Of a stretch of 64,000 nt of DNA, positions 13,926 to 19,563 are shown one piece after another. The number at the start of each line of letters is the position of its first letter. Position 1 is the first letter of the stretch. Origin of the DNA: Clostridiales bacterium. GTDB taxonomy: Bacteria > Bacillota > Desulfotomaculia > Desulfotomaculales > VENG01. The stretch is taken from assembly GCA_016278505.1 (NCBI GenBank), contig JADQBQ010000002.1:1123-65122 (forward strand), given 5' to 3'. The translations under genes were made by a program, and so were the position numbers. Below the pieces are notes generated by a model, which was not told where the DNA came from, made no database searches, and saw nothing but the letters and a program-made list of their open reading frames with translations.

Positions 13926-15328
13926 AACTGCTTCTCTCCTCTGTCCCACAATCTCTCTTCCAAGTGTATTCTTAGTACTGATGCCATACCGGTTTCCTGA
14001 CTGCTGTAAAACAGTTTGTTTCCTTGGCAACCAAATACCGGGTTGGTATACCGGTCAGCTTCGCCCAGGGACAATACCCTGGGTTCACGAACCCCTTCCA
14101 GCTCAAGTTTTTTTAACCATTCTATTTCTTTACCTGTCATCGTTTGGTCCTTACTTACCAGCAAAGTACCGGGTGTTATTAAATTTCCTTCAGACTTGTC
14201 ATCCTGCAGTAATTCACCGCCATCAGGACCGGCATAAATTGACCGCACTTCACCTATCCGTTGCCGCACAGTAAATTGTGGAGACCCATCAGGCAGATAA
14301 GTTAAGACCCGCTCTTCTTGACTGGTAACAACAAAGGCCAAAAAACCCTTTTCACCCCACGCAGCCTGCTCACCTTGTCCCAACACCTTTGTTATCCCTG
14401 TTTTAACATCCACAAGGTAAAGAAAATTATTACCTCCGGATTGGTGACGCTGTACAATAATCTTTGAGCCGTCCGGTGACCAGGCCGGATGCCTGCCTGA
14501 TGATACAAAATCATTTATCCCGTTACTGTTGGTAATATATACCCGAGCTAAATTGCCTTCAGTCTCTGCATATGCCAGGCGAGCCCCCCCCGGAGACCAG
14601 GTAAGACCGCTATACTCGTGAGCATTCTTTCCTCTGCACAATATCTCAAACTGGAGTGCCTCTGCGGCAGAGTCCGGATTTAATAATTCCTTGGCTTTAA
14701 TGACCACAATTTGTGGTGCGTAGCCATTTTGCCTACGCACCAGTGCCACTTCTTTTCCATCCGGGGAAAAAGCGGGAGATTTATAATCCCAATTTGGAGG
14801 CAAATCCAATACACGGTACGGACTGTTGGATTGGTTCGATAGCAACAACTTGCCATTTCTGGCTACTATCACAGCACCCTCAGGTGAAACGGTAAAGTCT
14901 GTTTCCCCACCTGCATGCCAAAAGCTCATTACCGGTACTGGATTTCCCACTGGTCTAAGGTAAGTTTCAGTAGCATTAAGCCACGATACAAGTATCGCTG
15001 CTGCTATAACTATACCAACTAGCAACAACCAAAAACGGGAGAAAAAATTTCTTATCGGCCTTGGCCCCAACAGTGAAAATTCTGAAACAGAAAGATTGTC
15101 ACCGTGGATTCTACTGCTAAGCAGTAACTGCTTAAGCTCAGTCTGCAATTTTTGATTTACCGGTACCGCCTGTCGTATCCTGCGCATATGGTCTAATAAT
15201 TGGTGCACTGATTCATTAACATCATTTTCGCCGGTGCCTTCAAGCAAACGACACCTGTCCTTATGCCTTTCCTCTTTATGTCTTTCCATAGAAAATACTT
15301 TCCCTCTGTCTTTGTTAAAATCATTCAT
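13922..15328 (-). CDS. Putative anti-sigma factor: cytoplasmic N-terminus, single TM helix, TolB/PD40 beta-propeller
   Basis: One TM (FWLLLVGIVIAAAILVSW), repeats SPAFSPDGK, WSPGG, PAWSPDGS; overlaps the sigma stop codon. Confidence 0.72.
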   Translation of the reverse strand: MNDFNKDRGKVFSMERHKEERHKDRCRLLEGTGENDVNESVHQLLDHMRRIRQAVPVNQKLQTELKQLLLSSRIHGDNLSVSEFSLLGPRPIRNFFSRFWLLLVGIVIAAAILVSWLNATETYLRPVGNPVPVMSFWHAGGETDFTVSPEGAVIVARNGKLLLSNQSNSPYRVLDLPPNWDYKSPAFSPDGKEVALVRRQNGYAPQIVVIKAKELLNPDSAAEALQFEILCRGKNAHEYSGLTWSPGGARLAYAETEGNLARVYITNSNGINDFVSSGRHPAWSPDGSKIIVQRHQSGGNNFLYLVDVKTGITKVLGQGEQAAWGEKGFLAFVVTSQEERVLTYLPDGSPQFTVRQRIGEVRSIYAGPDGGELLQDDKSEGNLITPGTLLVSKDQTMTGKEIEWLKKLELEGVREPRVLSLGEADRYTNPVFGCQGNKLFYSSQETGMASVLRIHLEERLWDRGEKQL

Positions 15329-15870: not shown

Positions 15871-15898
15871 TTTTAACCTCCACAATGTCTTTATATTA

Positions 15899-15927
15899 TA
15901 GACGAGGTAAAATAGATTTTTGTTACC
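15899..15927 (-). promoter_or_regulatory. Probable autoregulatory ECF promoter
   Basis: GGTAAC-17-CGTCTA on the minus strand, matching the AAC/CGT ECF signature, ~30 bp upstream of the sigma ATG. Confidence 0.6.
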
Positions 15928-15977
15928 GCTATTTTCGATTTTTTGCCGGCAAATAAACAGCAGTCAACAAAACAAGC

Positions 15978-16008
15978 AAAAAAGAACACCACCTTTCGGT
16001 GGTGTTCT
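15978..16008 (-). terminator. Rho-independent terminator of the small Cys-rich ORF
   Basis: AGAACACCACC-GAAA-GGTGGTGTTCT followed by a T tract; perfect 11-bp stem overlapping the TAG. Confidence 0.85.
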
Positions 16009-16117
16009 ACTGTCCCGCGCAATCTTCGTAACTGTAAAATAGTAAGCCACGACAACAATTTCCCCAATAGTAGATACAACTTCTGCACTCGTAACATAAA
16101 TCTCTATTGGTACTCAT
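16007..16117 (-). CDS. Unannotated 36-aa Cys/Tyr-rich peptide MSTNRDLCYECRSCIYYWGNCCRGLLFYSYEDCAGQ
   Basis: Hand translation; SD AAGGGGTG 6 nt upstream of the ATG; terminator at the stop; promoter upstream. Confidence 0.7.
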   Translation of the reverse strand: MSTNRDLCYECRSCIYYWGNCCRGLLFYSYEDCAGQ

Positions 16118-16146
16118 AGCTCACACCCCTTCGTGCTCTTTCCATC

Positions 16147-16175
16147 ATGATAGGCTTACTGGGATAGGAAGGCAA
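16147..16175 (-). promoter_or_regulatory. Sigma-A-like promoter for the Cys-rich peptide
   Basis: TTGCCT (16175-16170), 17 bp, TATCAT (16152-16147). Confidence 0.5.
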
Positions 16176-16214
16176 CGCAAAAGGGCCAAACGGGTAAAAA
16201 CAGTCTTTAACCGG

Positions 16215-16577
16215 TTAAAACGCATTTTTAATATGGTTAATTTTTATCAATTCACCATTGGCCTTAAAATGCAGCGCTAGAACGTCAAAACGGACCTTTG
16301 GGAGAGGTTTATGCAAGGATTGCAAATAAAGAGATGCAACCATTCTTATTTTTCTTTGTTTTACCGGTCCAATACTCTCCTCAGGTAACCCAAAACGTTT
16401 AGTGCTGCGGGATCGTACTTCAACAAAAACCAATGCTTCCTTGTCTGCAGCAATTATGTCTAGTTCACCTATTTTACATTTATAGTTGGTTTTATGTATT
16501 TGAAATCCTTGCTTTTTTAGATAATCCAGGCTCACCTTTTCTCCCAATCTACCTAAAGCTAATCTTTTATGGGTCAT
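16215..16577 (-). CDS. yraN: YraN family (UPF0102) nuclease-like protein
   Basis: LGRLGE, NYKCKIGELDII, VFVEVRSR, RFDV. Confidence 0.92.
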   Translation of the reverse strand: MTHKRLALGRLGEKVSLDYLKKQGFQIHKTNYKCKIGELDIIAADKEALVFVEVRSRSTKRFGLPEESIGPVKQRKIRMVASLYLQSLHKPLPKVRFDVLALHFKANGELIKINHIKNAF

Positions 16578-16733
16578 TTACCTCCACCTAACCTATCCAC
16601 TTTACTAAAACAATCTTCAAATAAGTATTTTACCGACTTTAAAACAAAATCCTTTAAAATCACAATAATAATTAAAGAAGGTTCTTGGGCACCAATAGCG
16701 AACAATCAAGTATAATCTTACGGGGGTGGCAAT

Positions 16734-16946
16734 ATGACCGGTGTAATCAGAACAATAGAAGGACAATATGCCGTTATTGAAATGGGGACCAGTAAACACA
16801 AAGTGATTATGCCAATTCAATTTCTGCCGCAAGGAGCGAAAGAAGGCCATACTCTCCAAATAGACATTACTATTGACCCCAAAACACCACGAAGACCTCG
16901 GTCAAAGGTGACTAACATTAAGGAAAAATTAAACAAAAGAAAATAG
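16734..16946 (+). CDS. DUF3006-like small protein
   Basis: GVIRTIEGQYAVIE...LPQGAKEG pattern; GGGGGTG SD. Confidence 0.65.
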   Translation: MTGVIRTIEGQYAVIEMGTSKHKVIMPIQFLPQGAKEGHTLQIDITIDPKTPRRPRSKVTNIKEKLNKRK

Positions 16947-16969
16947 ACCCGTACTACGGGTCCATTTAA

Positions 16970-17404
16970 TTAATACAAACCTTTTTCCTCCATATATTCG
17001 CCGAGTAATTTAGCCGTATTACCTGTAATCTTAATACAAGTTCTAAGGTGCTCTTTGCTGTCAAAAGGATACTCATTAAGTGCTCGGCAGCAGGTTGCTC
17101 CAAACTTTTCCTCAAACCTGTCATGGAATTCCTTGGCAACATCATAAGCAGGCTCCCTGGCTTCGGATTGGGTGGTTCTTCCCTTGACTATCCCCAAAAC
17201 TGCAACCGATGCGGCAAGAGCCCCACAAACACAACCTGAATGACCAAACCCGCCTCCAAAACCAGTAAACATCCTAACTATTGACTCATCCAATTCAGGT
17301 GTTACTTGCGGTCTAAATGTTTTTATAATAGATTCTGCACAATTGTAACCCTCTCTGAAGTATCCGCCGGCAGTATTACGCATAAGAGTAGCTTTGTCTT
17401 CCAT
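16970..17404 (-). CDS. C_GCAxxG_C_C family putative redox/metal-binding protein
   Basis: YNCAES, GFGGG, GCVCGAL, TCC, terminal C. Confidence 0.88.
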   Translation of the reverse strand: MEDKATLMRNTAGGYFREGYNCAESIIKTFRPQVTPELDESIVRMFTGFGGGFGHSGCVCGALAASVAVLGIVKGRTTQSEAREPAYDVAKEFHDRFEEKFGATCCRALNEYPFDSKEHLRTCIKITGNTAKLLGEYMEEKGLY

Positions 17405-17495
17405 GTTTGCATACCTCCATAAAGTCTGTTATTAGTAATTTAGACAAATATTTTTAAATTCCTTGAAAATTATAAAAAATATTAAGGATGAACGT

Positions 17496-18692
17496 TTATT
17501 CTCTAACGGTCAAGCGCTTTATAGCTTTCTGTAATCCTTCTAGTGTCAGTTCAAACATTGGAACAATGTCCGAGATAATATCTATTGTATGTGCTCCCTC
17601 AGTTGCGGGCCAAATTTTTTTCGGTATTGGATTAAGCCAAACAACATGCCTAAAATGGTTAACAATGTGCCGCAACCACGTTATTCCCGGCTCATTATTC
17701 AGGTAGTTCCACTCCAGCGCCCCGTATTTCATCATTAGCTCACTGGTTGCCATACTGGCATCTCCTACCAAAATAACTTTATAATCATGAGCATAAGTGT
17801 TTAATACTTCCAGTGTTCTTTGAGAAGCTTGAACGCGACAAAAGGGCTCGTGGAAGAGATGTTCATATATACAGTTATGAAAAAAATAAACTTTAAACTT
17901 TTTAAAGTGGCCCGCTTTATTTGCAGCTTGGAATAGCTGACTGCACAACCGTGCATAGCGATTCATTGATCCACCGGAGTCCATCAATAGCATTAATTTA
18001 ACATTATTTTTCCTGGGCCGGTTCCAAACTAATTTTAAATTGCCTGCGTTATTGCCTGTGGCCTCAATCGTACTCTCCAGGTCCAGCACTTCTTTAGGTC
18101 CTTCCTCGTGGCGGGATAGACGGCGCAAACTACGCAGAGCGGTTTGGAAATGGCGCGTGTTTAATACTTCGTCCTTCCTAAAGTCATGAAAACTTCGTTC
18201 AGCTGCTACTTGAGCAGCAGAGCGGTTTATTGACTGCCCACCAATTCGCACTCCGGCAGGGTTATAACCGGAATGCCCGTAGGGAGAAGTGCCACCGGTT
18301 CCAATCCAGTAGGAACCTCCATGGTGTTCAGAATCTTGCTGCTCCATCCTACCTTCCAAATTGCGACGAAGTTCCTCAAAGTCCCAATCCTCAAAACATG
18401 CGCGTTCTGCAGACGTAATATTTAAAGGTGGTATTGATTTTTCCACCCATTTCAATACTTCACTTACCATTTCTTCTGACGTTTCTATCCCGCCGAAAAA
18501 TTTTAAAAAAGCACGGTCAAAAGAATCGTAATAGGCCTCGCTCTTGACAAGAATTGCCCTAGCCAACCGGTAAAATTGCGTCAAACTGGAGAAGCCCAGA
18601 CCTTTATCCAGGGCTGACATAAAAGTTATCCATTCAGTTAATGAAACCGGAACCCCCATCCCGCGAATTAAATAAAAAAAGCCTGTAAACAA
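17496..18692 (-). CDS. VWA domain CoxE-like protein
   Basis: HHGGSYWIGTGGTSPYG, MIDAS DSGGSM, FFHNCIYE, GDASM, VWLNP; TTG start ~18692. Confidence 0.85.
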   Translation of the reverse strand: MFTGFFYLIRGMGVPVSLTEWITFMSALDKGLGFSSLTQFYRLARAILVKSEAYYDSFDRAFLKFFGGIETSEEMVSEVLKWVEKSIPPLNITSAERACFEDWDFEELRRNLEGRMEQQDSEHHGGSYWIGTGGTSPYGHSGYNPAGVRIGGQSINRSAAQVAAERSFHDFRKDEVLNTRHFQTALRSLRRLSRHEEGPKEVLDLESTIEATGNNAGNLKLVWNRPRKNNVKLMLLMDSGGSMNRYARLCSQLFQAANKAGHFKKFKVYFFHNCIYEHLFHEPFCRVQASQRTLEVLNTYAHDYKVILVGDASMATSELMMKYGALEWNYLNNEPGITWLRHIVNHFRHVVWLNPIPKKIWPATEGAHTIDIISDIVPMFELTLEGLQKAIKRLTVRE

Positions 18693-18693
18693 T

Positions 18694-19563
18694 CTATACC
18701 CCACCCTGACGGTTAAAATGTCCTACACCCACACTATTAATATACTTTTTAACCTGGGCCATATCCTTGTCCTTTTTAATTAACGAGCCTGCAAAAGGTA
18801 GCTCTTCAGTAATTTTTGCGGGGTCTACCCCGCCCAAAACTAATGCTTGCAGCCAGTCTAACAGCTCACTGGTACTTGGCCTTTTTTGTAAACCTGGGAC
18901 TGATCTTAACCAATAAAAAGCTTGTACAGCTTCTGTTAGCAAGTTCCTCATCAAATTAGGATAATGTACTTTGATAATTTGTTTCATTTCCTCAGGTCCC
19001 GGAAAAGCGATGTAGTGAAAAATACAACGGCGCAGAAAGGCGTCCGGAAGTTCCTTCTCGGCATTACTAGTTATAATTACTATGGGGCGTTTCTTCGCCG
19101 TTACAGTTTCGCCGGTTTCTGGAACATGAAAACTCATCATATCCAATTCCCATAAAAGATCATTAGGAAACTCCAGGTCAGCTTTATCAATTTCGTCAAT
19201 CAGTAGAACCACTTGTTCTTTTGAAGAAAATGCCTGCCCCAGTTTGCCAAGCTTTATGTAGTTTTTTATTTCTGACACATCACGGTCACCGAATTGACTA
19301 TCATACAAACGCTGCACCGTATCATACACGTATAGGCCGTCTCGAGCCTTTGTGGTGGATTTAATATTCCACATTAAAATATCTAAACCCAGTCCCTCTG
19401 CAATACTTTTGGCAAGCATAGTTTTACCTGTACCCGGTTCTCCCTTAATGAGAAGTGGTCTACTCAGTGCAAGAGCAACATTAACAGCTTGTTGTAAATC
19501 GCCCGGGGCTACGTAGTCGGCAGTCCCGGAAAATCTATTGAATGGTTGATACAAGCTAATCAC
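18694..19563 (-). CDS. MoxR-family (CoxD-like) AAA+ ATPase
   Basis: GEPGTGKT, LLIDEIDKAD, TSNAEKELPDAFLRRC, KRPSTSELLDW. Confidence 0.9.
   Translation of the reverse strand: MISLYQPFNRFSGTADYVAPGDLQQAVNVALALSRPLLIKGEPGTGKTMLAKSIAEGLGLDILMWNIKSTTKARDGLYVYDTVQRLYDSQFGDRDVSEIKNYIKLGKLGQAFSSKEQVVLLIDEIDKADLEFPNDLLWELDMMSFHVPETGETVTAKKRPIVIITSNAEKELPDAFLRRCIFHYIAFPGPEEMKQIIKVHYPNLMRNLLTEAVQAFYWLRSVPGLQKRPSTSELLDWLQALVLGGVDPAKITEELPFAGSLIKKDKDMAQVKKYINSVGVGHFNRQGGV

Follow-up and report, generated by a model that had tools for sequence, protein, structure and literature searches.

Desulforedoxin of Desulfovibrio gigas, a sulfate reducer, is a 36-aa protein with an Fe(Cys)4 centre and an adjacent Cys-Cys pair. 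SCIFF peptides (six cysteines in forty-five residues; TIGR03973) are ranthipeptide precursors, and the CsfB/Gin proteins of spore-forming Bacillota are small (~40-50 aa), cytoplasmic, Cys-rich, zinc-binding regulators that carry paired CxxC knuckles. The gene analyzed here lies on the minus strand of a 64,000-nucleotide stretch of DNA from a Clostridiales bacterium (hereafter the window, meaning that whole stretch). Its product shares with desulforedoxin a length of 36 aa, a “CC” pair and a sulfate-reducer setting, but the pair is private to the window's genus, and searching the PDB by profile gave two chance matches (E about 2.4) and no related chain of known structure. Like SCIFF, the window protein and its relatives are small Cys-rich peptides of Clostridia-type Bacillota, a kind that gene callers often miss. 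The cysteine spacing differs, however, the family has five invariant cysteines rather than six, no radical-SAM/SPASM maturase is adjacent, and neither TIGR03973 nor any other NCBIfam model (E <= 0.1; RiPP-precursor models included) matches the window protein, in agreement with an earlier, sequence-only reading of this DNA that had set the peptide apart from SCIFF. CsfB/Gin resemble the family in being small, Cys-rich proteins of spore formers with a cytoplasmic location (predicted for the family), but CsfB/Gin have paired CxxC knuckles, and no Pfam or NCBIfam model matches the family (0 Pfam families at E <= 0.1 for the window protein).

The closest known kind is that of the natural half-ferredoxins (“semidoxins”; PD1 stands for protodoxin-1), proteins of about 30 aa that were described in anaerobes in 2025 and of which one was shown to bind [4Fe-4S] (PMC12648291). 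Semidoxins share with the family a stand-alone length of ~30-40 aa, strictly anaerobic hosts, a single CxxCxxC...CP set, rarity, and the possibility of existing as a monomer or dimer. They were found through InterPro ferredoxin signatures (PMC12648291), whereas the family matches none of these, and the spacing to the CP cysteine is 3 residues in semidoxins and 7 in the family. The family is further distinguished by a fifth invariant cysteine, an invariant glycine, and a near-invariant tryptophan and leucine; its cluster is putative; and AlphaFold2 gave no beta-alpha-beta model for it, the models from alignments of 13 and 28 rows being helical, with pLDDT values (59.0 and 57.3) that are too low to read.

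Anatomy of the locus

The sequence-only reading had proposed a hidden, monocistronic gene for a six-cysteine peptide at this site. Its ORF, Shine-Dalgarno sequence, promoter-like site and terminator were each recovered in place, as follows.

15973..16008, minus strand: intrinsic terminator, made up of an 11-bp stem closed by a GAAA loop (16008-15983) and a T-run after it
16007..16117, minus strand: coding sequence of the 36-aa protein, ATG start, found by ORF scan; protein MSTNRDLCYECRSCIYYWGNCCRGLLFYSYEDCAGQ
16124..16131, minus strand: Shine-Dalgarno sequence AAGGGGTG, read from the sequence, with the ATG 6 nt downstream
16147..16175, minus strand: sigma-70-like promoter, with -35 TTGCCT (16175-16170), a 17-nt spacer and -10 TATCAT (16152-16147)
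16176..16214, minus strand: spacer from yraN to the promoter, with a weak CCCGTT copy (16194-16189) of the boxes found upstream of orthologs
16215..16577, minus strand: yraN (UPF0102, PD-(D/E)xK nuclease family; PF02021, E 1.2e-26; NF009154, 120 bits, cut-off 109)

The protein contains six cysteines (C8, C11, C14, C21, C22 and C33), and the five tyrosines and one tryptophan that had been attributed to it match the translation of 16007-16117 (minus strand). As also claimed, the ORF is masked (a 68-aa ORF at 15891-16097, minus strand, overlaps it and crosses the terminator, and a plus-strand ORF of 58 aa overlaps it too), and the protein lacks a signal peptide; it has no hydrophobic stretch either, and it is predicted to be cytoplasmic. 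No Rfam model matched above its gathering score between positions 14000 and 18000 of the window.

The terminator stem shares 2 nt with the TAG stop of the ORF, and its predicted folding energy is -21.1 kcal/mol, compared with -8.8 +/- 2.6 for shuffled sequences (z = -4.8; 0 of 200 shuffles equal it). The TTGCCT-17-TATCAT site matches the consensus at 9 of 12 positions, and the number of promoter-like sites in the region (3, compared with 3.6 +/- 2.2 in shuffles) is at chance level when taken alone. When the upstream regions of the orthologs placed after yraN (type 1, see below) were aligned, TTGnnn, a spacer of ~17 nt and TAnnnT were present at equal distance from the ATG in 11 of 11, and the -10 takes the form TAnnAT in 10 of these 11 loci; this conserved position supports a separate, predicted promoter for the peptide gene. 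Most type-1 orthologs (loci L023-L033) also have the boxes CCCGTTAAAC and TTTGCCTTTTCAAGG ahead of the -35, both weak in the window, and these may constitute a candidate operator. Inspection of the upstream boxes by eye, against sigma-54 and known operator consensus sequences, gave no convincing match.

The proposed anatomy of promoter, Shine-Dalgarno sequence and terminator is thus reinforced by the promoter spacing, by strong Shine-Dalgarno sequences among the relatives and by hairpins located 3' of most family copies. That the gene is monocistronic is likely, but this part of the earlier claim needs qualification at the upstream end: scanning the window revealed no terminator that would separate yraN from the peptide gene, and read-through from yraN is therefore possible.

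Conservation, paralogs and distribution

A six-frame search found an identical copy in a sister species of the same genus, g1 (G001), two weaker copies in the window's own genome (G000), and relatives in 3 other genera of the order. A pattern scan with one genome per species yielded 11 public loci, whose hosts are Desulfallas, Desulfoscipio geothermicus, Desulfotruncus alcoholivorax, D. arcticus, Desulfotomaculum-type MAGs and “Peptococcaceae bacterium BRH_c8a”. Relatives that preserve the frame are 40-43 aa long. The ATG lies 11 codons ahead of the first cysteine in all 10 type-1 orthologs of the public loci, and 7 codons ahead of it in the window copy. Most of 22 family genes have a GGAGG- or GGGGG-type Shine-Dalgarno sequence within 18 nt of their assigned start, on its upstream side; it is absent for the start taken in locus L043.

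In an alignment of 28 family sequences, C8, C11, C14, C22, G24 and C33 are invariant, M1, W18 and L25 are kept in at least 90%, and the family pattern is [ILV]-C-x2-C-x2-C-x3-[WY]-x3-C-[P]-G-[LI]-x8-C. C21, the first cysteine of the window's “CC”, occurs only in the window's genus and is Ser, Gly, Thr or Leu in other sequences (alignment A5). Because C21 is not conserved among the 28 sequences, the family is one of five cysteines, and the six-cysteine pattern first proposed has to be restricted to the window's genus. Of 78 pairs, 8 have more than 70% nucleotide identity; NG86 dN/dS could be computed for 7 of these 8 and was 0.067-0.247, dS being saturated in the other. G000 and G001 differ at 101 of 3108 sites (3.2%) across a 3.1-kb region, at 4 of 97 in either flanking spacer, and at 0 of 111 nt in the coding sequence and 0 of 26 in the terminator stem-loop; their two differences within the promoter (16161 and 16168) fall in its spacer and leave both hexamers intact.

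A 36-codon ORF alone is not significant, and it is because frame, start and cysteine columns are conserved and dN/dS is 0.07-0.25 that the gene rises above chance. Homologues that keep the frame and the spacing of the five invariant cysteines exist, and the hidden gene for a small Cys peptide is real, as judged by its conserved frame, start, Shine-Dalgarno sequence and cysteine columns and by the purifying selection acting on it. By this comparative evidence, 16007-16117 (minus strand) is with very high probability a genuine protein-coding gene that has its own predicted promoter, ribosome-binding site and terminator.

The window copy is a type-1 ortholog, the type placed just after yraN, and is neutral to acidic like the other type-1 copies, while copies of types 2 and 3 are rich in Lys and Arg. 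Type-2 copies, of the form MAA..R..[IV]CD.CSKCIY[HR]W..GCPGL..F..EKCK.M, are strongly basic and occupy a second chromosomal site; the window's genome has one outside the window (G000:C27:175429-175551; L002/L039), and the others are L040-L047. In 7 of 9 type-2 loci the gene directly upstream encodes a highly conserved protein of 110-123 aa that no Pfam model matches (alignment A4, with a mean column identity of 72%); its positions are as follows.

L040:4409-4744
L041:4267-4638
L042:3546-3881
L043:4394-4750
L044:3518-3850
L046:3106-3438
L047:1469-1804

A TM1266-like gene is close on the downstream side in 4 of the 9 type-2 loci, and an ADP-ribosylglycohydrolase gene as well as Fur-family and Znu zinc-uptake genes (in two genera) occur in the vicinity. 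In type-2 genes the -35 region is covered by a conserved box rich in A and T, AACAAAAAT[GA]TAACATAATTTTTAT, and the terminator is nearly identical between copies (CCCCTAC-loop-GTAGGGG). Type-3 copies (L048, L049 and L003) have a longer basic C-terminal tail and are neighboured by DnaD-like, RusA-like, SNF2, HNH, primase-helicase, DUF3987 and DNA-methylase genes, a setting of prophage-like replication and recombination modules. One type-3 contig (L049 = L050) is present whole in IMG/VR as a viral contig; a type-3 query of viral contigs returned this same contig and two spurious matches only, and a family-pattern search of viral contigs found no relative. The L003 copy lacks the first cysteine and the start codon and may be decayed.

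The family is small. When 1.84 billion cluster representatives were searched with a profile, 9 matched at E <= 1e-3, of which 4 carry the motif (40-74 aa); the other 5 comprise four that were inspected and are long repeat proteins and a fifth, P0015, of 2027 aa. Among 5.8 billion proteins, a word-indexed search identified 7 matches of 40-43 aa, one of which is the NCBI hypothetical protein Desgi_2721 of Desulfoscipio gibsoniae, with no mention in literature full texts (supplements being outside that scope), and another of which bears the JGI name “ferredoxin oxidoreductase delta subunit”. Carriers, with one to three copies each, make up 15 of the 162 genomes of the GTDB order: 11 of 18 in family f19, 1 of 1 in f12, one weak match in f14, and, in family f1, both genomes of genus g1 (G000 and G001) while G002 has none. 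The hosts are a small group of spore-forming sulfate-reducing bacteria, and the family is limited to Desulfallaceae-like, spore-forming, strictly anaerobic Bacillota. It is undescribed in family libraries, and its members are 36-55 aa long. No PHROGs model matches the family, ESM Atlas searches with the window protein and with P0007 gave no usable match, and the strong family matches contain no in-frame TGA of the kind expected for selenocysteine variants.

The neighbourhood of the gene

On the minus strand of the window, genes for a MoxR-type AAA ATPase, a CoxE-like VWA protein and a C_GCAxxG_C_C protein are followed by yraN and the peptide gene, downstream of which are genes for an ECF sigma factor and a PD40 protein. 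The public loci share these neighbours as follows.

yraN directly upstream: 10 of 11 public loci
MoxR and VWA: 9 of 11 public loci
C_GCAxxG_C_C: 9 of 11 public loci
ECF sigma or PD40 protein: 0 of 11 public loci

The eleventh locus, the one that lacks an upstream yraN, is a type-2 paralog. The sequence-only reading had suggested that the peptide could be a signal or cargo of the ECF system and had named co-occurrence with the ECF operon as a way of checking this, but besides the window only L004, a locus of the same genus, has the ECF pair after the peptide gene, and that link must be abandoned. Of 11 type-1 loci, the window included, 4 have a convergent gene in first place downstream, and the genes in that place in the other 7 are mutually unrelated, which, together with the missing ECF genes, removes both the ECF and the leader-peptide readings. 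The neighbouring ECF operon is an accident of the window's genus, and the relevant neighbour is yraN.

All five related genomes that lack a type-1 copy retain yraN, which in four of them (G002, G043, G079 and G080) is immediately followed by a hairpin of its own, and no ORF with the motif was found within 900 nt past yraN in any of the five. Since related genomes thus keep yraN, with its own hairpin, in the absence of the peptide gene, the latter is a separable cassette that is dispensable for YraN.

Past the peptide terminator there is an ECF-type promoter-like site, GGTAAC-17-CGTC (15927-15901, minus strand), called by its likeness to the ECF consensus. The sigma gene probably starts at ATG 15870, which is preceded by GGAGG (15881-15877), and not at the TTG at 15885 of the ORF list.

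Candidate functions

We tentatively favour the view that the product is a small cytoplasmic metal-thiolate protein of semidoxin-like character, with an Fe-S cluster as the most likely centre. Its five invariant cysteines would form the metal-thiolate centre, most likely a [4Fe-4S] cluster, with the CxxCxxC triad holding the cluster, C22 or C33 providing the fourth ligand, and the conserved aromatic run F/Y-Y-W shielding it. On this view the protein would resemble semidoxins in function, serving as a very small carrier of electrons or as a module that senses redox state or iron, and it might do so as a dimer. CxxCxxC is described as the canonical low-potential [4Fe-4S] motif (PMC9059760, PMC3320576). 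C22 is usually followed by Pro, like the ferredoxin “CP”, the residue before the first cysteine is hydrophobic, as in ferredoxins, and an uncontrolled hhalign comparison placed family residues 4-15 against the CxxCxxC of 35 ferredoxin half-motifs from the same genome with a probability of 73.5%, over 12 columns only. The “ferredoxin oxidoreductase delta subunit” name given by JGI was counted for the Fe-S reading, as were the strictly anaerobic hosts, which the family has in common with natural semidoxins. Fer4-type profiles gave no significant match (Fer4_2 reached E = 0.14 in 1 of 13 members), and none of the 53 matches of PF00037 in the window's genome falls at the peptide gene. The spacing C-x2-C-x2-C-x7-C-P departs from the ferredoxin motif CxxCxxCxxxCP, and the Gly that is usual after the second ferredoxin cysteine is absent from the family. 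The five cysteines fit a Zn(Cys)4 site as well as they fit an Fe-S cluster.

The main rival to the Fe-S reading is a zinc knuckle, a mini-protein in which four of the five cysteines would hold a structural Zn and the aromatic residues would stack on bases, and which would bind DNA, RNA or a DNA-processing enzyme. We consider this somewhat unlikely. CxxCxxC is not known as a usual zinc-finger spacing, which we counted against it, and the type-1 copies are neutral to acidic; type-2 and type-3 copies, on the other hand, are basic and stand, in the case of type 3, among phage DNA-replication genes on contigs of which one is viral in IMG/VR, and this leans towards nucleic-acid binding over electron transfer. 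That type 1 immediately follows yraN, a nuclease gene, at 10 of 11 loci also speaks for zinc, YraN having been reported as an ssDNA endonuclease of transformation D-loop resolution (bioRxiv 10.1101/2024.02.06.579203), but this adjacency may be no more than inherited synteny in one narrow clade, and the peptide is not an obligate YraN subunit, because a conserved promoter of its own precedes its gene and yraN persists in related genomes that lack the peptide. A predicted complex of YraN, peptide and Zn scored 0.01, with an uncertain fold of the partner, and carries no weight on either side of the binding question. A reading that joins the two ideas, which we regard as unlikely, would make the family a semidoxin-like “proto-ferredoxin” of 36-43 aa with a single Fe-S motif, outside all ferredoxin signatures, in three lineages of which one is prophage-borne; it would assist proteins of DNA transactions, for instance the YraN nuclease, by sensing redox state or iron.

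The remaining explanations fare worse. That the peptide is a RiPP precursor, with trans-acting modification of its cysteines by an enzyme (radical-SAM or other) from another part of the genome, would suit a small, Cys-rich product with several paralogs per genome. It is nevertheless improbable: the 22 ORFs that were scanned in the window, from 5.6 to 28 kb, include no radical-SAM, peptidase or exporter gene, as the sequence-only reading had noted for radical SAM in the immediate vicinity, and none occurs among the scanned neighbours of 13 type-2 and type-3 loci; no NCBIfam RiPP-precursor model matches; the 7-11 poorly conserved residues before the first cysteine are too few for a usual leader; and conservation runs through the whole core, W, G and L included. 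This earlier suggestion is thus unsupported, and nothing speaks for the role at the spore surface that had been offered beside it. A signal, cargo, or leader peptide or attenuator of the ECF operon was suggested by the location of the peptide gene, 122 nt upstream of the ECF sigma gene and on the same strand in both the window's genome and the sister species, and by the attenuator-like succession of ORF and terminator. The ECF sigma gene and its PD40 partner are not shared by the public loci, however, the next gene in the type-1 loci is convergent or unrelated, the sigma operon has its own ECF-type site at 15927-15901, after the terminator, and selection acts across the whole protein sequence, which is unexpected of a leader peptide, so that this explanation is very improbable. 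It is barely conceivable that the ORF is no gene at all and arose by chance within the 3' untranslated region of yraN: 36-codon ORFs are common by chance and the count of promoter-like sites is within the shuffle expectation, but frame, start, Shine-Dalgarno sequence and five cysteine columns are kept across genera with low dN/dS, and paralogs at other sites have Shine-Dalgarno sequences and terminators of their own.

Proteins of fewer than 50 aa are routinely missed, and the family described here was defined by comparative evidence; it comprises three lineages, in each of which the gene has its own putative promoter and terminator, and it is absent from family libraries. Either Fe-S binding or a partnership with YraN or phage replication, if true, would raise its interest. 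Should the Fe-S reading hold, the family would represent a second, sequence-independent class of natural Fe-S peptides of half-ferredoxin size, beside the few described in 2025 (PMC12648291); such peptides serve as models of the earliest redox proteins. Should it instead be a zinc knuckle with links to YraN and to the replication genes of phages, it would hint at a DNA-processing accessory factor, so far unknown, in anaerobic Bacillota. The question is directly testable, since the peptide is short enough for synthesis.

Two further observations concern the surroundings of yraN. The block that encodes the MoxR-type AAA ATPase, the CoxE-like VWA protein, the C_GCAxxG_C_C protein and YraN (16215-19563, minus strand) is conserved across several genera, and yraN is not usually found in such a setting. 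In the window a DUF3006 gene on the plus strand (16734-16946) separates the C_GCAxxG_C_C gene from yraN, flanked by a bidirectional hairpin (16941-16967); this gene is absent from other loci with the block and was seen only in G000, G001 and G002.
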